This document shows positions 6,127 to 43,181 of a stretch of DNA of 43,181 nt, in pieces. Origin of the DNA: a virus (lineage: Duplodnaviria > Caudoviricetes); IMG/VR virus record IMGVR_UViG_3300010222_000170, positions 1 through 43,181 of that record; one strand, 5' to 3'. The notes below the pieces were generated by a model. It worked only from the letters and a program-made list of their open reading frames with translations, did no database searches and was not told the origin of the DNA. The translations under genes and the position numbers were made by a program. Position 1 is the first letter of the stretch; each line of letters starts with the position of its first letter.

Positions 6127-6152
6127 TCGTGGGGCTATGAGCACCTGTATGG

Positions 6153-6223
6153 GCGCAGGAACCGCCGAGAAGCGATTTCGGCCCCGCGTTGCAGCGCGGG
6201 ACCTGCGCTCTGAGAACAGAGCG
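6153..6223 (+). ncRNA. Structured 5' leader (three-way junction plus ATG-proximal alternative hairpin), copy 1
   Basis: GCGCAGG/CCTGCGC encloses CCGAGA-AGCGA-TTTCGG and CCCGCG-TTGCAG-CGCGGG; CGCTCTG-AGAA-CAGAGCG ends at ATG 6224. Confidence 0.6.
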
Positions 6224-6718
6224 ATGGCAACTACGCAATCCAGCGTTGAAAACGCTACCGACGACCGACGCATTGACCTCGAAAGAATTGAACGCGCTTT
6301 GACCGACGACATGACGGTCCGCGACCACGCACCCGCGCAGTATCTCGTCGCCCGCGACGGCGACGACCACGAGGAGCACCTCGTGGATACCGACGCCGCC
6401 GCGTGCGATTGTGAGGACGCGCACTTCAGAAACGTCGTGTGCGTCCACCTCGCCCGCGCGGCGCTCCACCACGCCTACCGCTCGTCGCCGAACACCCGCC
6501 TTGTGGCGCGGGTCCTCGCGGCCCTGAGCGAGCTCGGCTGCCCGCACGACGTCGCCGGCTGCGGCGGTCCGACTGACGCGGGCCAGCGGGGACTCCCCTG
6601 TGAGGGGTGCATCTCCAGCACGTCGCACGGGCATTGGGTCGTCTGGCAGCGACTCGCGAACGCCGCGGTCGTGGAGCCGGACGTGGCGACCGACGGCGGC
6701 TCGGAGGCGAGCCGATGA
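6224..6718 (+). CDS. SWIM zinc-finger protein
   Basis: CDCEDAHFRNVVCVH (CxC...CxH) plus further Cys residues. Confidence 0.8.
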   Translation: MATTQSSVENATDDRRIDLERIERALTDDMTVRDHAPAQYLVARDGDDHEEHLVDTDAAACDCEDAHFRNVVCVHLARAALHHAYRSSPNTRLVARVLAALSELGCPHDVAGCGGPTDAGQRGLPCEGCISSTSHGHWVVWQRLANAAVVEPDVATDGGSEASR

Positions 6719-8145: not shown

Positions 8146-8194
8146 TCGGCGGGCTTGACACCCCTGCTGTTTGACAACCCCACCCAGAATCAAA

Positions 8195-8228
8195 GCATTT
8201 ATTACTGTGAGGGTATATAGTGTATATG
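8195..8228 (+). promoter_or_regulatory. Promoter with GTATAT direct repeat (candidate RHH operator)
   Basis: TTTATTA at 8198-8204 followed by GTATAT-AGT-GTATAT. Confidence 0.55.
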
Positions 8229-8263
8229 TGAGCGGGGGAACGAACCCGCCACACCAACCGACC

Positions 8264-8608
8264 ATGAGCGCAACCAACGACGATACGACCGAGCAGAACT
8301 GGACCGACGAAACCGCGAGCGAATCGGAGACGGCGATCAACCGCCATCTCAGCCATCAGGGTGCGACCGACTCCCTCGCCGGGGCGATCGCGGACGCGGC
8401 CGCCGACGCGGGGCTCAACCGGATGGAGATCGGCTACGAGGACCGCGGCTCGTCCAAGACGATTTACGTCCACTCGGGCGACAACGCCGTGCCCGACGTG
8501 CTCCACGAGCGGCTGACCGACATGGGCTTTGCGGTCATGGATCACTTCGATCACACCGAGGGCGTCAACGGCCCCCGCGGGTGCAAGTACGAGGACACCA
8601 AATACTAA
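8264..8608 (+). CDS. Hypothetical protein (first gene of cassette)
   Basis: Acidic ORF starting MSATNDD downstream of promoter. Confidence 0.7.
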   Translation: MSATNDDTTEQNWTDETASESETAINRHLSHQGATDSLAGAIADAAADAGLNRMEIGYEDRGSSKTIYVHSGDNAVPDVLHERLTDMGFAVMDHFDHTEGVNGPRGCKYEDTKY

Positions 8609-8615
8609 CGACGCC

Positions 8616-8689
8616 GGCCGACGCCGAAACGCAGCACCGAGCTGTGTCGGCGGGGGGCTGGCCGCCCCCGTCCTGATGACGGCAGGCCA
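8616..8689 (+). ncRNA. Type II hammerhead ribozyme
   Basis: GCC-GAAAC-GCAGC/GCTGT-GTC, stem I GGCGGGGG/CCCCCGTC, CTGATGA-C-GGC; predicted cleavage after C8648. Confidence 0.85.
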
Positions 8690-8697
8690 CTCAAACC

Positions 8698-9360
8698 ATG
8701 ACAACGACATCCCAAGCGGACGGCGGCGAAGTTGAGGTTGAGTACGATGGACAGGCCGTTACGGTCCCTACGACGATACGGCGCAGCGACCTCGCGGGCT
8801 ACTTCGGCAGTGTCGCCAACACCTGTCCCGTCGAATACATTTACGTCTACGACGGACGGCTCCGTGCCGAAGGACAAGCCGACGAGACGACTCGCGTTAT
8901 CGCAACGTATCGCCCCGACCGTGTGGACTCGGTCGGAGGCGGGTGGGACGGATGGGGAGCCGAACTCGTTGACGGTGCGGCCGAAGGCACGCCCCCGAAC
9001 ACGCTCTGGGAGCGTGGCAGCCAAGAGCCGATGACCGACGGCGGCGTGGACGTGGCCGATGCCGACACCGACGAACGGGACCGCAGCCTGATGGACACGC
9101 TTGCGCCCCTCGCCGGCGAGGGCCGCACCCCCGTCAGGGACCTGAGCCACCGCGATGACCCGCGGTTGCATATCGACACGCCCGCCGGCGAGATCCAGAC
9201 CTCGCGCCAGCCCGATAGCGTTGAGAAGATCGGCAGCGCGACCCAGCGGCGCTGGACTTGGGGCGAGTACCGACTCGAAGAGGAGCGCGACGGCCACCCC
9301 GATCTCGACGATGACGAGCGCCACGCGGTGGTCGTGACGCGCGTCGGGCAAGGGGACTGA
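8698..9360 (+). CDS. Hypothetical protein (possibly two fused modules)
   Basis: Acidic 220-aa ORF with internal MTDGG junction. Confidence 0.7.
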   Translation: MTTTSQADGGEVEVEYDGQAVTVPTTIRRSDLAGYFGSVANTCPVEYIYVYDGRLRAEGQADETTRVIATYRPDRVDSVGGGWDGWGAELVDGAAEGTPPNTLWERGSQEPMTDGGVDVADADTDERDRSLMDTLAPLAGEGRTPVRDLSHRDDPRLHIDTPAGEIQTSRQPDSVEKIGSATQRRWTWGEYRLEEERDGHPDLDDDERHAVVVTRVGQGD

Positions 9361-9363
9361 CCC

Positions 9364-9549
9364 GTGTCCGATACCACTACCGACGGCCGCAAAGCGACGA
9401 CGATCCGGGTGTACAAAGACGAGCTCGAAACGCTGAAGCGAGCGAAGCGCCGCATTGAGTACGAGGTCGACGGCGACCTCGCAATGGGCGAGGCGCTGAC
9501 AATGCTCGCCGAGACGTACCTTGAAATGGCCGGCGAATCGGCCGATTGA
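9364..9549 (+). CDS. RHH-like regulator
   Basis: ATTIRVYKDELETLKRAK...MGEALTMLAETYL. Confidence 0.7.
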   Translation: MSDTTTDGRKATTIRVYKDELETLKRAKRRIEYEVDGDLAMGEALTMLAETYLEMAGESAD

Positions 9550-9551
9550 CG

Positions 9552-9634
9552 TCCATTTTTCGCTAACGTTGCCACTGCTCGTTTTTACGCTGCAGTACCA
9601 TCTCCACGCCCAAAACTCAGGTTAGGCGTGGAGA
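9552..9634. terminator. Termination zone between convergent units
   Basis: T-tracts after the stop and 10-bp inverted repeat TCTCCACGCC/GGCGTGGAGA (9601-9634). Confidence 0.5.
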
Positions 9635-9652: not shown

Positions 9653-10828
9653 TTATCGACGCACGTCCGCGAACGCACCCTCGTCGATCCCCCGCAGCGC
9701 CTTGTGGGGGTCGTTGATCACGACGAGCGCCTGGTCCCAGCCCGTGTCGGTGAGCGACGCACACGAAACCTCGGTGTCGCTGTGGATGTTGACGGTCCCG
9801 CCACCGGCTCCCGTTGTCGCGAGCGGGCCGTCGACGTCCACCGTCACACCGGGGCCGAAGGTCACGGCCGTGCCCTTGACCAGATTCATCGCCGCCCCGT
9901 CGCCGGTGATCGTCGTGTCGCGGATCTGGTAGTCCCCGCCGTAGGCGTCGAGCGGCACGGCCCCCTCACCGCCCCACCGCTTTCCGGCGTCGAGCCGACA
10001 GCCCCTGATTCCGAGTTCGCCGCCGTAGAGTTGGATGGTGCCCTCAAGCGTGAGCGATTCGAGGCGGGCGTTCTGTGCGGTGCCGGCGTCGAACTGAAAA
10101 TTGGCTTGGTTGACCTGCACCGTGGTCCGGTCGCGACCAGCGCCGCGGAGTCGCCAGTCGGCGGTCTGATGCACGCCGACCTGCCCGGAGTTAAGCGCCG
10201 AGCCCGGTTCGTTGCCGTGAACGCCCTTCGAGACGGCGATCGCACAGTCGTGTTCGATGCTCCGGGGATCGCAGTTGAGCGCGTCCTGGATCGTCCCGAG
10301 CGGCTCGGTCTCGGTTCCTTTGCCGGTGCCGAACTCGCCGTGGCCGACCCGGAGCGTGCGGTCGCCCGACGAGCGCTCCGTGCGACCGAGGACGCCGTTG
10401 GCCGGGTCGGAGGCCTCGCCGGCGCGGGCTTTCCACGGCGCGCGCTTCGCGGAGCTCCCGCCTCGGTCGTCGGGAGCTCCGTTACCCGTCCCGGTCTCGT
10501 CACCGCCACCGCCGCCACCACCGCCACCATCGCCACCGCCGCCGAAGCGATCGGGCCGATACGCGAGCGCTTCCTCGTGGCTCATCGCTTCGCCGTCGAT
10601 CTCGACCTGCACGCCATCGGGGGCCTCAATTGAGGCGATCCACCCGCGGACCCGATATTCGTCCCAGCCGCCCCACACCTCGCCGCTCGCCTGCCAGCCG
10701 CCGCTGATCGAGTCGTTGCCTTCGAGCGATCCGTCCGCTTCGGCGAGCTCGCCGTTGATCTCGATGCTGTACGTCGCCTGTCGACCGTCGGGTGTGCCGA
10801 CCCCGACGATGAAATCTGACTGGTCCAT
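9653..10828 (-). CDS. Two-domain protein with poly-Gly linker and putative parallel beta-helix (pectin-lyase-like) domain
   Basis: GxGT..EPLGTIQDAL...IAVSKGVH...LRGAG...TTV pattern typical of beta-helix N-caps; start (10828 vs 10915) uncertain. Confidence 0.6.
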   Translation of the reverse strand: MDQSDFIVGVGTPDGRQATYSIEINGELAEADGSLEGNDSISGGWQASGEVWGGWDEYRVRGWIASIEAPDGVQVEIDGEAMSHEEALAYRPDRFGGGGDGGGGGGGGGDETGTGNGAPDDRGGSSAKRAPWKARAGEASDPANGVLGRTERSSGDRTLRVGHGEFGTGKGTETEPLGTIQDALNCDPRSIEHDCAIAVSKGVHGNEPGSALNSGQVGVHQTADWRLRGAGRDRTTVQVNQANFQFDAGTAQNARLESLTLEGTIQLYGGELGIRGCRLDAGKRWGGEGAVPLDAYGGDYQIRDTTITGDGAAMNLVKGTAVTFGPGVTVDVDGPLATTGAGGGTVNIHSDTEVSCASLTDTGWDQALVVINDPHKALRGIDEGAFADVRR

Positions 10829-10952
10829 GATTTGAAATTCGGACACGTCTCGCACACCACAGCGGCCGCTGGAGCGGTCGCTGTCGGTCGCGAGCGCCCG
10901 CACAGCGGCCACCACGCCCGCCGTTAGTCAATCGTCGCGCGCGTGCGTCTAC

Positions 10953-20597: not shown

Positions 20598-20834
20598 ATG
20601 AGCGAGTACGTGTGCTCAGAGTGCCGCGAGCCGATCAACGAAGGCGCTGATGTCTGTCCGAACTGCTCCTATTCACCCGGCAAAGACCACGCCAAGTGGG
20701 GAAAAATCGACGGGGTTCTCGGCGGGCTGCTCATCGCGAGTATTGTCGGCTCTCCCTTCGGGCTATACCTCGTGTGGCGAGCGCTGCGACACAACCGAGC
20801 CGCGAAGAAAACGTCGCCCGCGGTGCCGGCCTAG
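20598..20834 (+). CDS. Antisense moron: zinc ribbon plus transmembrane protein
   Basis: CSEC...CPNC then hydrophobic segment; own TTTATGTCG promoter 30 nt before ATG. Confidence 0.75.
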   Translation: MSEYVCSECREPINEGADVCPNCSYSPGKDHAKWGKIDGVLGGLLIASIVGSPFGLYLVWRALRHNRAAKKTSPAVPA

Positions 20835-21817
20835 TCGTCGCCGAACGTCGTGATTTCTGCCTGTTCCGCCGGTAGCGGTGGGTGGGGAAGGAACGTCATG
20901 AACTGAATCCATGACGGAACCGATTCTAGCGCTGGGCCGTTATGGGTGCAGCAAATTGATACGAGGTTGAACGGGTCGTTGCGGAGTTCGGGGGGCGCGT
21001 CTTGTGAATCGCGCGCCCTGACGATATGATGGACATTAAGTTTCATGCCGTGGTGCTCAAGATGCTCGGCTTGACTTTTTCCACAGATTCGGCATTCGTG
21101 GCCGTCCCGTTCGCGGACAAGTTCCTTTTTACTTTCCACCCATCCCCGACCATACCCAGCTAAGCCACCATCCCATAACGGATGATCTTCGCCGGAGAAG
21201 GCCTCCGACCGCCACGCTTGATCGCACGAATCCGAGCAGACATTGTGTTGATTAACCATTGATGGGTGGCGGGTAATGTCATCATGACACCAAACACACT
21301 CAACAGTGACCATTCCGCCTTGCCAGTTGTTTGTGAGTTCGCCAGTGACATTTTCAGAAACCCACAAGTCCTTGCAATCCTTTGAACAAAACCGGCTGCG
21401 TTCTTCTCGGGATGGGTGCTCTATGTACTCGTCACCGCACTGCTCACAAGTGAGCGTCACCTTATCTTTCAGTTTCTCGCCTTGGCACTTGTGACTACAG
21501 AACCGCTTGTCGTACTTTGAGGGGTAATACTCAAATTCCTCACCACATACCTCACAACCACGCGTTTCGGCGACCAGACTTTCATTATGAACTCGCGTGT
21601 GGTGGCACTTCAATCCTTGTGAGGTGGGGAACGAATCAGCACACGTGGGGCAGTCGTGCTCGGCGTCTTGGTGTCGGGTGTGCTCTTTCAGGCTTTCGTC
21701 GTGTTTGGCCGAATGATGCACCCCCAAGCCTGAACGCGTGTCAAACGACCTACTGCACGTCGGACACTCATGCTCCTCACCGTCACCGCTTTCACCGTTC
21801 GCGTCTTCCGTACTCAT
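20831..21817 (-). CDS. HNH endonuclease with C2H2 and CxxC...FCSxxC zinc-binding repeats
   Basis: VRERDGHECRICG...VHHI...NLVSIC; lower GC than flanks. Confidence 0.85.
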   Translation of the reverse strand: MSTEDANGESGDGEEHECPTCSRSFDTRSGLGVHHSAKHDESLKEHTRHQDAEHDCPTCADSFPTSQGLKCHHTRVHNESLVAETRGCEVCGEEFEYYPSKYDKRFCSHKCQGEKLKDKVTLTCEQCGDEYIEHPSREERSRFCSKDCKDLWVSENVTGELTNNWQGGMVTVECVWCHDDITRHPSMVNQHNVCSDSCDQAWRSEAFSGEDHPLWDGGLAGYGRGWVESKKELVRERDGHECRICGKSQAEHLEHHGMKLNVHHIVRARDSQDAPPELRNDPFNLVSICCTHNGPALESVPSWIQFMTFLPHPPLPAEQAEITTFGDD

Positions 21818-21880
21818 GCTTTGGTCCCGCCAAAGCACGGTCCCGCTCCATCGGGGCCGTTTCAGGCAATACCGTGCTTT
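21818..21880 (-). ncRNA. Structured 5' leader, copy 2
   Basis: AAAGCACGGT/ACCGTGCTTT encloses GCC-TGAAAC-GGC and CCCG-ATGGAG-CGGG; GCTTTGG-CGGGA-CCAAAGC ends at ATG 21817. Confidence 0.6.
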
Positions 21881-29515: not shown

Positions 29516-30238
29516 TTACGCAATTAGAACAGGGTCGAAAACGTCGCGGAAGTGCCACTCGGCTTCGTGATGGCAGGACTGGCATAGTGACATGAGGTTG
29601 TAGTCTTCATTGGTCCCGCCGCAAAGCAGCGGGACGATATGGTGCAGGTCGGTTGTGGATTCGCCACAGTTCGCGCATGGTTCGCCCGCGTAGCGAGACC
29701 GGATCGTGTTCCACGACGGACCGGGGAGTTGCTTTTTCACGGCGTCGTAGACCGACTTCCCACCACGCCAGTTCGGGTGTTCTTGGCCAGTGACGCCTTT
29801 CATGCCGTTTTCGTCGCGGGCGGATGCTCCGAGCGCACCATGTTTAGCCCGGAGTTTGCTGGCGAGTTCGGGGTTTTCCTCCACCCAGCGTTGCAGCGAC
29901 AGTTCGCCATTCGCTGCAAGTTCGCGGTTCTTCTCATGGGCGGCTTTGACTTGTGCTTCGCGCTCCTCGGGAGTCATCTGGCTCCATTTGAGCTGTTCGG
30001 CTTCGGACTGCCCCCGCCGCTCAATACCCAAATGCCTTAACGCGCCTTGGATCGCCGTCCGGCTAACGCCCAGTTCATTCGCTACTGCATTTTCCGACAT
30101 TTTAGCATACAATTGGCGGATGGTTTCTCCACCCACCCGCTCAACGGTTAGGTGCTTCTCCTCGTGTTTCTTGCCGAAGTGCGATTGCAAACCCGGCTCA
30201 GTATCGAACGGTTCGGAGCAAGCAGGACACTCCACCAT
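29516..30238 (-). CDS. HNH endonuclease with C2H2 finger and HTH
   Basis: CANCG...DLHHIVPLLCGGTNEDYNLMSLCQSCHHEAE. Confidence 0.9.
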   Translation of the reverse strand: MVECPACSEPFDTEPGLQSHFGKKHEEKHLTVERVGGETIRQLYAKMSENAVANELGVSRTAIQGALRHLGIERRGQSEAEQLKWSQMTPEEREAQVKAAHEKNRELAANGELSLQRWVEENPELASKLRAKHGALGASARDENGMKGVTGQEHPNWRGGKSVYDAVKKQLPGPSWNTIRSRYAGEPCANCGESTTDLHHIVPLLCGGTNEDYNLMSLCQSCHHEAEWHFRDVFDPVLIA

Positions 30239-38315: not shown

Positions 38316-38922
38316 CGGTATCCCCCCGCGAACCCAACCCCCATGCATAAAAGGCTGCGTCGCACTCGCACGGGATCCCACAGTCCGGGCACGAACTCGG
38401 TTCGTCGAAGTGCTCGCTGTAGTAGTTCGGTACCGTCTTCAGCCGGTCGAAGTCGAAGTGCTCGAACAGCGCCGAACTACCGTACCGTCCCTCTCGAACC
38501 CACGAGACGCCGAGCACCGCGTTCGCACCCTGCCGGAGCGCCCACTCGAACCGGGCCTCGAAGATACGCTTACCCAACCCGCGGCCTTGGTAGTTGGACG
38601 TGACACAACCGATGTGCATGACAGCACAGTCGTTCGGCAGGTCCCGCTCTATCAGACTTCGGAAGTACCCACCGACCCACTCTCGGGAGCCAATACCGGA
38701 GAGGCCAAACCCGACCACCTCACCGGCGGCGAGGTCCTCAACGGCCACGCCCCAGACGTCTTGACGGTCGGTGTCCGTTGCGTCTTCGATCCACTCCACC
38801 GCGGCGTCGTCCGCTTCGAGGCCGAACTCGCGGTCCCAAATCCGGAGTGCCGCCCGTGTGTCGTCCGCCTCTATATCGCGGAGGATGGGTTTTGCGGTGG
38901 TGTTGAAAGCTTTACTCATCAT
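38305..38922 (-). CDS. GNAT-family acetyltransferase with C-terminal Cys cluster
   Basis: CVTSNYQGRGLGKRI acetyl-CoA motif; CPDCG..CEC. Confidence 0.85.
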   Translation of the reverse strand: MMSKAFNTTAKPILRDIEADDTRAALRIWDREFGLEADDAAVEWIEDATDTDRQDVWGVAVEDLAAGEVVGFGLSGIGSREWVGGYFRSLIERDLPNDCAVMHIGCVTSNYQGRGLGKRIFEARFEWALRQGANAVLGVSWVREGRYGSSALFEHFDFDRLKTVPNYYSEHFDEPSSCPDCGIPCECDAAFYAWGLGSRGDTGAD

Positions 38923-39679
38923 CGTCCACCTCGCAATCTTGACACAGAACCATCTGCGCGTCGTCGTGTTTGGCGATGAGCGCGCGCAACTCCTCGGGCG
39001 GCATCTCCGAGTGACCCCAAAAGCAGTGGCCGCTATCGGTGCCGATCTCGTCTTGGACCTCCCGCTCCACCTCCATCAACCATTCGTAGTGTTCGGGATA
39101 GTGTGCTTGGAGTTCGACTAACTCCTCGTCCCGGTTCGCGAACGCGCCGCAGTAGCACTCCCCCGACCGATGGATGTTCTCGACGACCGGGTTGTGCGGG
39201 AGTTCGTGGTCGTCGATATAGTCGAGACAGTCCTGTTTTGACCACTCGGCGATCGGCGCGTGCCAGAACCACCGGCCGGTCGCGTCCTCGGTCGTCTCGG
39301 CGTCGGCCGTGCGCATCCGGCGCTCGCTCTCCGATTTGCGAACGCCGGTGTAGTAGTGGGGGGTATCGTCACAGTCGGCAGCCACGCGCTGTAACGAATG
39401 CGCTTTGAAGTACCGATAGGCCCACCCGTGCGCCGCTGATCCGGGAAAGCCCCATTCAAGCGCGAACTCTTTGAGCGACTTGTTCGGCGTCTCGACGCGG
39501 AGCGGCCAGTTGTGACGGTCGCACACGTCCCGGACAAACTGCTCGTTCTCGGGGATGCCCGTGCCGGTATTGAGATGGAGGACGGTATCAGTGCGGCCGC
39601 GCTCCATGCAGAGATGGGTCGAAACGAGCGAATCGTGACCGCCGCTGAAGAGAGCGAAATGGTCGGCGGCGTCGCTCAT
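38912..39679 (-). CDS. PAPS-reductase-family (PP-loop) protein
   Basis: FSGGHDS PP-loop, TGVRKSESERR, PIAEWS, SGECYCG. Confidence 0.85.
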   Translation of the reverse strand: MSDAADHFALFSGGHDSLVSTHLCMERGRTDTVLHLNTGTGIPENEQFVRDVCDRHNWPLRVETPNKSLKEFALEWGFPGSAAHGWAYRYFKAHSLQRVAADCDDTPHYYTGVRKSESERRMRTADAETTEDATGRWFWHAPIAEWSKQDCLDYIDDHELPHNPVVENIHRSGECYCGAFANRDEELVELQAHYPEHYEWLMEVEREVQDEIGTDSGHCFWGHSEMPPEELRALIAKHDDAQMVLCQDCEVDDDE

Positions 39680-40706: not shown

Positions 40707-41181
40707 CGTCCAACACCTCCCGCGGATTGACGACCGCCGGACCGTCGCCCACCCATTCGGCGTACGCGTACCACTCGTCACTGTACTGATAGGCGTAAAA
40801 CTCCCCGCACGATTCGCAGACGAGCGCGCCGTCCGGGTCGCCGACCACGTCCACCGCCGCGCCACAGACCGGGCACTCGCCGCACAGCATCCCCGGCTTG
40901 CCGGCGCTTCGGAGGAACACGTCATCGTCGACGATCCGATCGTGCAGCGCGTCGGCGTCGAACGGCCGCGTCGTCCCGCAGATGTCACACTCCCAGCCGT
41001 CATCAACCCGCATTCGTGCGGCGCACGTCGGACACGGGACTTCGACGGCGTGGGGGAGTCGGGCGTTCTCGAACCGCGGCGGATCGTAGGTCTTGATTTC
41101 GCCGCTGCCCTTACACCGCGGGCACTCGGCAACGCCGAAGCCGGGGGCGTCCGTTATCGGTGTGTTGTCGGCGGGGGTCAT
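40699..41181 (-). CDS. Multi-zinc-ribbon protein
   Basis: Several CxxC pairs. Confidence 0.7.
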   Translation of the reverse strand: MTPADNTPITDAPGFGVAECPRCKGSGEIKTYDPPRFENARLPHAVEVPCPTCAARMRVDDGWECDICGTTRPFDADALHDRIVDDDVFLRSAGKPGMLCGECPVCGAAVDVVGDPDGALVCESCGEFYAYQYSDEWYAYAEWVGDGPAVVNPREVLDDG

Positions 41182-41855
41182 GCCGACCTCCCGAGCGTCA
41201 CCTGTTCGGGCGGCGGGTTCGCGTGCGCCTCCTCGACGGCTTCAAGGATCGCCTCGCTCAGTTCCCGCGGGACCTTCGCGCGTTCGGCGGGGTCGCGGGT
41301 GTACGACTCCAAACCGCTCAGGTTGCCATCGCCACCGTTCGCTCGGTCGGTGTTGTACTCGTGACAAGCCGCACCGTACGAACACGACCGATAGGAGAAT
41401 CCGGGTGGGTGCTCGCCCCACAGATCGGTCGGTTTCATGTAATTCTCCCCGTACTGACAGTACGTGAGCCGGCCGGTGGGCTCGCCGATCACCTGCCGGA
41501 GGTACCCCTGCGGGTTCTCCAGAAACCAGTACTCCGGCGCGAGCGCTTTGATAAGGCCGATGGTATGGTAGACGAGCGCGACCGCCTCGCGTGCGGCGGG
41601 CGTTTGCGGTTCGCCGTCGATGACGCGTTCAAAGCGGCTTGCGGCGATCGTAAACTCGGTGCACGGCGGACTCGCCAGCACCATGTCGGCCTCGGGGAGG
41701 TCGGCGGGTCGCAGGTCCAACACGTCGGCCTGGATGTCCGGCTCGAAGCGCTCGTCGATGTCGACGGTCACGACCTCCCAGCCGTCGGCCTCGGCGAACG
41801 CGGCGCTGAAGCCTCCGAGGCCGGCGAAGAGGTCAATAACTGTCCGTTCACTCAT
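41178..41855 (-). CDS. Short DNA (cytosine-5) methyltransferase
   Basis: DLFAGLGG motif I, ASPPC motif IV, ENP motif VI. Confidence 0.9.
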   Translation of the reverse strand: MSERTVIDLFAGLGGFSAAFAEADGWEVVTVDIDERFEPDIQADVLDLRPADLPEADMVLASPPCTEFTIAASRFERVIDGEPQTPAAREAVALVYHTIGLIKALAPEYWFLENPQGYLRQVIGEPTGRLTYCQYGENYMKPTDLWGEHPPGFSYRSCSYGAACHEYNTDRANGGDGNLSGLESYTRDPAERAKVPRELSEAILEAVEEAHANPPPEQVTLGRSA

Positions 41856-42052
41856 CCCTGACCTCCGTCCGCAAGCCACTCGTCTAAATGGATTATCGCG
41901 TCGCCGCCGGTACCGTGGCCATTCGCCTCAACCACGCACAGTTTGACGAGTTTGGACTCGCCTTCCAGTTCGCCCATGATGGTGCCTGCGTCGGTGAACT
42001 CCTCGTCGCAGACCGGGCAGATGCCGCCGTGGACGAGTTCGTCGTCGGTCAT
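41852..42052 (-). CDS. Small zinc-binding protein
   Basis: MTDDELVHGGICPVC...; ATGA overlaps. Confidence 0.6.
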   Translation of the reverse strand: MTDDELVHGGICPVCDEEFTDAGTIMGELEGESKLVKLCVVEANGHGTGGDAIIHLDEWLADGGQG

Positions 42053-42260: not shown

Positions 42261-43046
42261 TCATTTTTCTTCACCATCCGCGAGAGGCTTGACAAGATGG
42301 CGTTCAGTGAATTGTCTCGTGTAGGATTCTACAGTTTGATGGCAAACTGAGCAGAGTAGCATTAACAGTTCGTCTGCGTTGACCCCACCCGCAAGTACGG
42401 GTATGATGTGATGGACATTTTTTCGGGTTGTGATGGCTTTACCGCAGAGCTCGCACTTGCCGTCGTTATCCTCTAAGAAACCTCGGCGTGTCGTTCCCCA
42501 CGGGTGAGGGAGTTGGTGCGTGACCGACCGATGGATTGTTACCCCGCCTGTCCACTGTGGGTGGTTGGGGCCACGGCGATTCTTAGACCGCCATTCGTGC
42601 TGGCAACTCGCTTGGCAGAATGTCGATGACCCCACCTCCGACTCTGGTCGTTCATAGCTATCACCACAGTTTTTACAGGTTAGTTCGACGCGGTTCGTCG
42701 GCTGATCTTGGCCGCGGTGCGCGCACTCAAGTCCACAGAATCGGCGATAGCCGCGGCTAGACCTTACTTCAAACGAGTCGCCGCAATATTCGCAAACCAG
42801 TTCCACGCGATCGCGATTGGCAATCCCCTGACATTCGCGAGAACAGAAATCGTTGGGGTCGTTAACCTCAAAAGACGTGAAAGTGTCCCCGCACTGCTCG
42901 CAGTTCACCTCAACGCCAGCAATGCTTTCGCCATGCGCCATCGCATGGTGTTGTTTCATCGCCGACGTGCAATCGAACTTGTCGACACCGCACGTCGGGC
43001 ACGCTACACCGTCAACGCTAAAGTCGCTAAGCTCTTTTTGTCGCAT
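42261..43046 (-). CDS. HNH endonuclease with C2H2 and CxxC...FCxxxC repeats
   Basis: CELCG...VHHIIPVLAGGVN...LLCSVCHQ; probable start MRQKELSDF. Confidence 0.85.
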   Translation of the reverse strand: MRQKELSDFSVDGVACPTCGVDKFDCTSAMKQHHAMAHGESIAGVEVNCEQCGDTFTSFEVNDPNDFCSRECQGIANRDRVELVCEYCGDSFEVRSSRGYRRFCGLECAHRGQDQPTNRVELTCKNCGDSYERPESEVGSSTFCQASCQHEWRSKNRRGPNHPQWTGGVTIHRSVTHQLPHPWGTTRRGFLEDNDGKCELCGKAITTRKNVHHIIPVLAGGVNADELLMLLCSVCHQTVESYTRQFTERHLVKPLADGEEK

Positions 43047-43124
43047 GCTTCTGGCACTCCCGGAAGCGCTGGGTTCGGTGTCCAACCACCGGACCCCTCT
43101 ACAGTTTTCAAGAGGTCGCGCTTC
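43047..43124 (-). ncRNA. Structured 5' leader, copy 3
   Basis: GAAGCGC/GCGCTTC encloses CCTCT-TGAAAACTGT-AGAGG and GGTCCGGTG-GTTGGA-CACCGAACC; GCTTCCGG-GAGTG-CCAGAAGC ends at ATG 43046. Confidence 0.6.
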
Positions 43125-43181
43125 TTGTGAGTGCATAGCATCCGGATAGGCATAAGCGCTGCGTGTTGCGGTTTTCAGCAT

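Follow-up and report, generated by a model that had tools for sequence, protein, structure and literature searches.

Type II hammerhead ribozymes with a pseudoknot between loop I and the 3' tail (Rfam RF02276) were described together with ribozyme clusters of prophages and with hammerheads of saltern viruses (Perreault 2011, PMC3088659). In that paper, mutation demonstrated that speed depends on the pseudoknot, polycistronic RNA was cut in vitro by clustered prophage hammerheads, one set of which cuts in E. coli, and one saltern hammerhead had the typical consensus core. In the haloviruses HF1 and HF2, the same paper places a ribozyme termed HHphage 13 nt before a helicase gene and the 5' end of an HF2 transcript within 3 nt of the cut; an insertion of the kind found in HF2 slowed the related HHmeta at low Mg2+ (PMC3088659). 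GenBank AF222060.2 annotates the HF2 copy as ncRNA 10292-10359 (locus tag HrrHF2_135). The hammerhead of the HF1 group was named as needing study (PMC7230728), and the purpose of self-cleaving ribozymes between phage or halovirus genes was called undefined (PMC6765202). In VIPR arrays, hammerheads separate GGY/NN guide segments from one another, and a vipr gene lies next to them (bioRxiv 10.64898/2026.04.26.720920).

The window analysed here is the whole stretch of 43,181 bases, an IMG/VR provirus record with an estimated completeness of 52%. Using cmscan (Infernal), RF02276 Hammerhead_II was found at 8622-8691 with 46.2 bits (gathering cut-off 37, E 1.8e-6) as the sole Rfam match of the window, and none of 14 control genomes reached the cut-off for this family. 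The ribozyme is composed of the following elements.

8623-8689, plus strand: type II hammerhead ribozyme (RF02276), 67 bases, predicted cut between C8648 and G8649
8623-8625 with 8681-8683, plus strand: stem II, three G-C pairs, open-ended
8626-8629, plus strand: GAAA of the core
8629-8635 with 8641-8647, plus strand: stem III, 7 bp with one G.U, loop-closed
8646-8648, plus strand: GUC, the NUH triplet of the core
8649-8656 with 8665-8672, plus strand: stem I, 8 bp with one G.U, loop-closed
8657-8664, plus strand: loop I, 8 nt
8673-8679, plus strand: CUGAUGA of the core (consensus CUGANGA)
8680, plus strand: extra nucleotide C after A9 of the core, seen in the sequence
8659-8663 with 8685-8689, plus strand: pseudoknot of UGGCC in loop I with GGCCA in the 3' tail, five Watson-Crick pairs

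All invariant core bases of the hammerhead are present, and 8623-8689 is a complete type II hammerhead motif. The original prediction had placed core elements, stems and GUC exactly where they were found, and its assignment to type II agrees with the stems of 8, 7 and 3 bp and with the Rfam search, which it had proposed as a check. The extra C before stem II and the pairing of loop I with the downstream GGCCA were likewise recovered. Its extent of 8616-8689 was right at the end and wrong at the start, as the segment 8613-8619 is a competing strand outside the motif, and the TGGCC it had taken for loop I pairs as proposed while forming only part of that loop. When both strands were scanned with descriptors of all three hammerhead types (I, II and III), this site (7+8 bp) and two further, weak minus-strand matches with stems of 3-4 bp were returned. 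With a single RF02276 match in a record of about half the estimated genome, no array was found, and one ribozyme in an 89-nt spacer therefore leaves no room for an array of the VIPR type.

Pattern scans uncovered a large phage subfamily, comprising 159 distinct hammerheads besides this one. Of these, 143 have GUC as the triplet, and GCC precedes GAAA in 157, although it lay outside the search pattern. Compared with the RF02276 type described in PMC3088659, the locus has the same topology, core, triplet, short stem II, 5-bp pseudoknot and position at a gene junction, and nothing essential differs. The extra C was considered as a novelty and rejected. Of the 159 relatives, 103 have a nucleotide in the slot after A9 (94 U, 5 A, 3 C and 1 G) and 56 have none, so an extra nucleotide there is a common variant, C itself being rare. 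The plus-strand hammerhead of CChMVd, reportedly studied by De la Pena and Flores in 2001, is said to tolerate one extra core nucleotide, between A9 and G10.1; that ribozyme belongs to a viroid, is permuted differently and uses loop-loop contacts rather than a pseudoknot.

HHphage of HF2 is a close halovirus counterpart. Both ribozymes belong to tailed viruses of haloarchaea, are of type II, follow a stop codon and precede an ATG by about 10 nt, and share a 7-bp stem III with a 5-nt ACCG(A/U) loop; 47 identities were counted in a 69-column alignment. Next to C3, where stem I meets the CUGANGA core, HF2 has the short insertion of the saltern variants; the present copy lacks it, stem I running directly into C8673 with a consensus core. 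The two viruses are of different lineages, and the HF2 ribozyme precedes a helicase gene while this one precedes ORF-B. The original prediction had implied that such ribozymes are rare in archaeal viruses, which overstates the case given the annotated HF2 copy of the same layout. The hammerhead of this virus is a well-supported further example of a ribozyme type whose occurrence in haloviruses has been on record since 2011.

Terminase, portal, capsid and tape-measure proteins are encoded on the minus strand of the window. The capsid protein shares 48% identity with its counterparts in HJTV-4 and Humcor1, the nearest two cultured viruses by this protein, so that the host is a haloarchaeon. Three HNH endonuclease genes were also found on the minus strand (20831-21838, 29516-30238, 42261-43181), two of them inside the virion module. 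A PAPS-reductase-like gene (38912-39679) and a DNA cytosine methyltransferase gene (41178-41879), the latter with 61% identity to a counterpart on a Halobacterium plasmid, lie on the same strand and possibly form a DNA-modification module. Around the ribozyme, the plus strand has the following features.

8192-8204, plus strand: predicted promoter-like site in which a TATA-like run comes after a purine-rich BRE; the unit probably starts at about 8225-8232
8227-8253, plus strand: predicted leader hairpin before ORF-A (ViennaRNA, -15.4 kcal/mol)
8264-8608, plus strand: ORF-A, 114 aa, acidic (D+E 19%), its stop ending 14 nt before stem II
8698-9360, plus strand: ORF-B, 220 aa and acidic, with a TDGG motif at the junction of its two modules and its ATG 8 nt after the pseudoknot
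9364-9549, plus strand: ORF-C, 61 aa, acidic, for which only a near-identical record was found
9556-9586, plus strand: two T5 runs in the sequence, a likely archaeal terminator

As the original prediction had it, the ribozyme lies between genes, flanked by the ORF-A stop and the co-oriented ORF-B start; its distance of 49 nt from cut site to ATG 8698 was also correct. Homologues of ORF-A were found at 95% and 56% identity, and no PHROG, Pfam or usable Atlas match was obtained for it. When related loci were sought with the ORF-A protein, a single weak one turned up (33% identity, E 6e-4), in a record without an RF02276 match; none were found with the ORF-A alignment, with ORF-B or, in metagenomes, with the alignment of the ORF-B N-terminus. 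ORF-B gave no family match in PHROGs or Pfam and nothing usable in the Atlas. Its N-terminal half matches the stand-alone proteins P0004 and P0005 and its C-terminal half P0006, so that ORF-B unites two modules found apart in other sequences. Motifs related to TDGG recur as QADGG near the ORF-B start, as ATDGG at the end of ORF 6137-6718 and as TTDG near the ORF-C start. ORF-C, for which Pfam and PHROG gave no match, resembles by eye a ribbon-helix-helix DNA binder, a putative assignment. No Shine-Dalgarno-like (SD) pattern was found before ORF-B.

On the plus strand of the window, a BRE/TATA pattern written after the haloarchaeal consensus matches at 8192-8204 only, and 8188-8227 is the second most AT-rich 40-mer of the window (72% versus 36% overall). 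At the other end, the minus-strand ORF 9653-10915 converges on the T5 runs; it encodes 420 aa with a glycine-rich linker, ends the minus-strand block with the tail genes and gave no PHROG or Pfam match. A sigma-70 promoter scan, a method which does not cover archaeal promoters, returned one terminator match (minus strand, 8626-8609) at chance level. Since promoter-like site and T5 runs bracket the three genes, one plus-strand transcript of about 8228-9586 is suggested.

We consider it probable, judging from the sequence, that the ribozyme cuts its own RNA after C8648 and splits this three-gene transcript into an ORF-A message and an ORF-B/ORF-C message. The hammerhead would fold on the nascent transcript and then cleave. 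Hammerhead cleavage leaves a 2',3'-cyclic phosphate on the 5' piece and a 5'-OH on the 3' piece. The ORF-A RNA would thus have the stem III hairpin directly before its terminal cyclic phosphate. The ORF-B/ORF-C RNA would start with 5'-OH and a 49-nt leader retaining stem I and the pseudoknot. Such a cut would uncouple stability and translation of the two pieces, which we infer to be its purpose, and the ribozyme would act as portable punctuation between small and probably early viral genes. Cutting of a polycistronic RNA is supported by the HF2 precedent, where a transcript end was mapped near the cut.

The motif might instead be an inert passenger or arise by chance, without transcription of the plus strand. 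It is present in a single copy and is absent from HJTV-4, Humcor1 and nine of ten other cultured haloviruses tested, HF2 being the only carrier of RF02276; the lack of a match in HJTV-4 and Humcor1 therefore marks the ribozyme as an accessory feature. The E value and the complete core speak against an inert motif, however, and the ribozyme is kept with a compensatory change while its neighbours differ. The plus-strand ORFs flanking it are acidic and have homologues, whereas the minus-strand ORFs overlapping them are arginine-rich (12-17%) and not acidic (D+E 6-8%). We regard an inert passenger as very improbable.

Whether the ribozyme is fast is a separate matter. In the inactive fold predicted by ViennaRNA, the cut site is covered by pairing of 8622-8627, and the following strand invades stem I.

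8613-8619, plus strand: competing strand pairing with 8656-8662 over 7 bp in the minimum-energy fold, pair probability 0.81

Part of it, 8616-8619, can alternatively pair with 8685-8688, against the pseudoknot. The hammerhead was never the lowest-energy fold in these calculations. With the native flank, the inactive fold was favoured over the hammerhead secondary structure by 15.9 kcal/mol, compared with a median of 6.0 in the relatives; a gap as large was reached by one of 158 with a 30-nt flank and by none of 158 with a 12-nt flank. With a flank of 3 nt it fell to 8.1 kcal/mol, close to the nearest relatives and as large in 9 of 158. The original prediction of fast cleavage is thus not assured, since the native 5' flank tilts folding towards an inactive structure more strongly than those of nearly all relatives. 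We are aware that the folding model ignores the pseudoknot, core and tertiary contacts and molar salt; the gap is therefore to be taken as a warning about rate and not as a refutation. Because of the competing fold, partial cleavage is possible, and going by the model this copy may be slow or cleave only in part. Inactive metastable folds, an extra nucleotide and GUC as the usual triplet are treated in PMC3376415 and PMC1636495.

The same fold could mean that a change at 8617 traps this copy, so that it cuts slowly or hardly at all while its relatives cut well. Its folding gap is near the largest in the family, and the inactive fold was the predicted minimum from the synthesis of 8660 onwards, before stem I is complete, up to full length. 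When pairing was forbidden at 8617, the probability of the 8613-8619 helix dropped from 0.81 to 0.10, and both halite contigs that cover this position read A instead of G, which breaks a central pair of the helix. Yet core, stems and pseudoknot are all intact, the deep run X1, from which this DNA may come, lists no variant at 8613-8689, and nearest-neighbour energies place the hammerhead above another fold in most relatives too. A weakened allele is for these reasons unlikely in our view, and a working ribozyme, possibly a slow one, is preferred.

A regulated version was modelled as well. A ribosome ending ORF-A at 8606-8608 would cover 8609 to about 8620 and free stem I, and cutting would take place only during translation of ORF-A. 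The competing strand lies 5-11 nt after the ORF-A stop, inside the ribosome footprint, and masking to 8617 or 8620 removed the 8613-8619 helix and lowered the gap to about 8-9 kcal/mol, near the range of the closest relatives. Under masking to 8620, however, the second inactive helix (8622-8627 with 8647-8652) persisted at 0.91, and in the relative that shares the upstream gene the competing strand is not conserved. Among relatives with enough flank, 134 of 154 have an upstream stop, at a median of 2 nt before stem II; as the stop abuts stem II in most of them, a shared switch design is not indicated. Coupling to translation is quite improbable, more so than a weakened allele, and splitting of the transcript remains our preferred reading.

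The pseudoknot was followed through viral sequences by its two halves. Matched UGGCC/GGCCA occurred in at least 128 viral stretches (estimated about 130) and matched UGCCC/GGGCA in 87, whereas mismatched UGGCC/GGGCA occurred in one; a full hammerhead was present at 116 of 128 (among the matches listed), 83 of 87 and 1 of 1 of these loci, the counts being sequences and not independent events. The single mismatched hammerhead (L482, 201-234, minus strand) is a natural exception. Among 33 hammerheads at loci fetched without a pseudoknot term, 27 had at least four loop-tail pairs, in 17 different sequences. By these counts the pseudoknot covaries, as the pairing in the original prediction would have it.

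The ribozyme was also found in six contigs from three halite-metagenome runs other than X1 (X2, X3, X4, all of one study); these are 105-588 nt long, and their viral nature is putative. In one contig it follows a relative of ORF-A and differs in a loop and in the extra slot, where it has U; in two it follows a different sequence ending in TGA. Five contigs carry G8661C, and the partner change C8687G, which is compensatory, is directly visible in one of them (X4). Comparison over window positions 8623-8706 gave four different downstream sequences after the ribozyme. Judged from these neighbours, the ribozyme behaves as an accessory cassette that is reused beside other sequences. Its occurrence before at least four downstream sequences also makes cassettes or arrays conceivable in mobile elements of halite. 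The locus makes a tidy test case, with one ribozyme, a three-gene unit and natural alleles differing in pseudoknot and competing strand; this copy alone does not settle why phages and haloviruses place such ribozymes between genes.

In a BLAST search of the region against 50,697 phage records the ribozyme alone was matched, in seven Streptomyces phage records with 93% identity over 44 nt. Plasmid BLAST gave weak matches only (best E 2e-3). An exact-pattern scan of 185,579 species genomes, a set that may lack close relatives of the present one, yielded 122 stretches, 121 bacterial and one from Nitrososphaerota, where no hammerhead was found at the pattern match. An acidity screen for halovirus loci among the relatives was uninformative, as it scored the ribozyme's own region at only 0.11. 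A start codon follows in 145 of 152 relatives at a median of 19 nt after the pseudoknot, and an SD-like pattern was counted in 140 of 159 with a loose pattern and no control, but not in the present copy.

Over the 44-nt module running from GUC through the pseudoknot, the seven best matches have 41 identities, most relatives having 30-36. They are unannotated and come from Streptomyces phages (Salutena, Marav and relatives) or actinophage-like contigs (L090, L091, L377, L378). Salutena-type copies share the rare extra C, and the Streptomyces-phage hammerheads share the order of stop, ribozyme and start. They differ in stem III, in an SD site that follows and in their arrays (12 in G002, 6 in G003), whereas this virus has one copy and no SD site; its stem III resembles that of HF2, unlike the core-plus-stem-I module. 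The earlier search patterns were biased towards Streptomyces-type hammerheads. On the less biased UGGCC/GGCCA set, the best match out of 77 modules had p = 0.005 under column shuffling; with the comparison confined to the 23 modules from loci with 60% GC or more, p was 0.034, values to be read with features picked after the fact and columns that are not independent. The second-best match was not significant (about 0.2), and an unweighted test found two modules, both from one contig, that match at 11 or more of 13 positions, against an expectation of 0.3. It is conceivable, and we put it forward tentatively as the less probable reading, that viruses of haloarchaea and Streptomyces-type phages exchanged the module, which lost its SD tail and is now shuffled between genes in halite virus populations. 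If so, a non-coding RNA cassette would have been transferred between bacterial and archaeal viruses; otherwise the likeness would reflect convergence and the locus is an ordinary new example.

For hammerhead arrays in Streptomyces phages no paper was found in a search that covered few subscription journals; Dataset S1 of PMC3088659, which lay outside its scope, may hold such sequences. G002, taken as MT708548.1 (Streptomyces phage Salutena), has 12 RF02276 matches at 37,921-47,357, 11 over the cut-off and all within 9.4 kb of one arm (loci L001, L002, L483-L494). In the annotated stretch of it that was read, the three hammerheads carry no RNA annotation, and two of these occupy gaps between annotated genes. 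In Marav, hammerheads lie near an OCR-like antirestriction gene. The 60-kb viral contig G003 (loci L090, L091, L144) has six near-identical type II hammerheads at 37,175-44,684, and the metagenome contig L377 holds a pair similar to them. In the stretch of G003 that was read, each hammerhead lies between a stop codon and a short gene led by an SD site.
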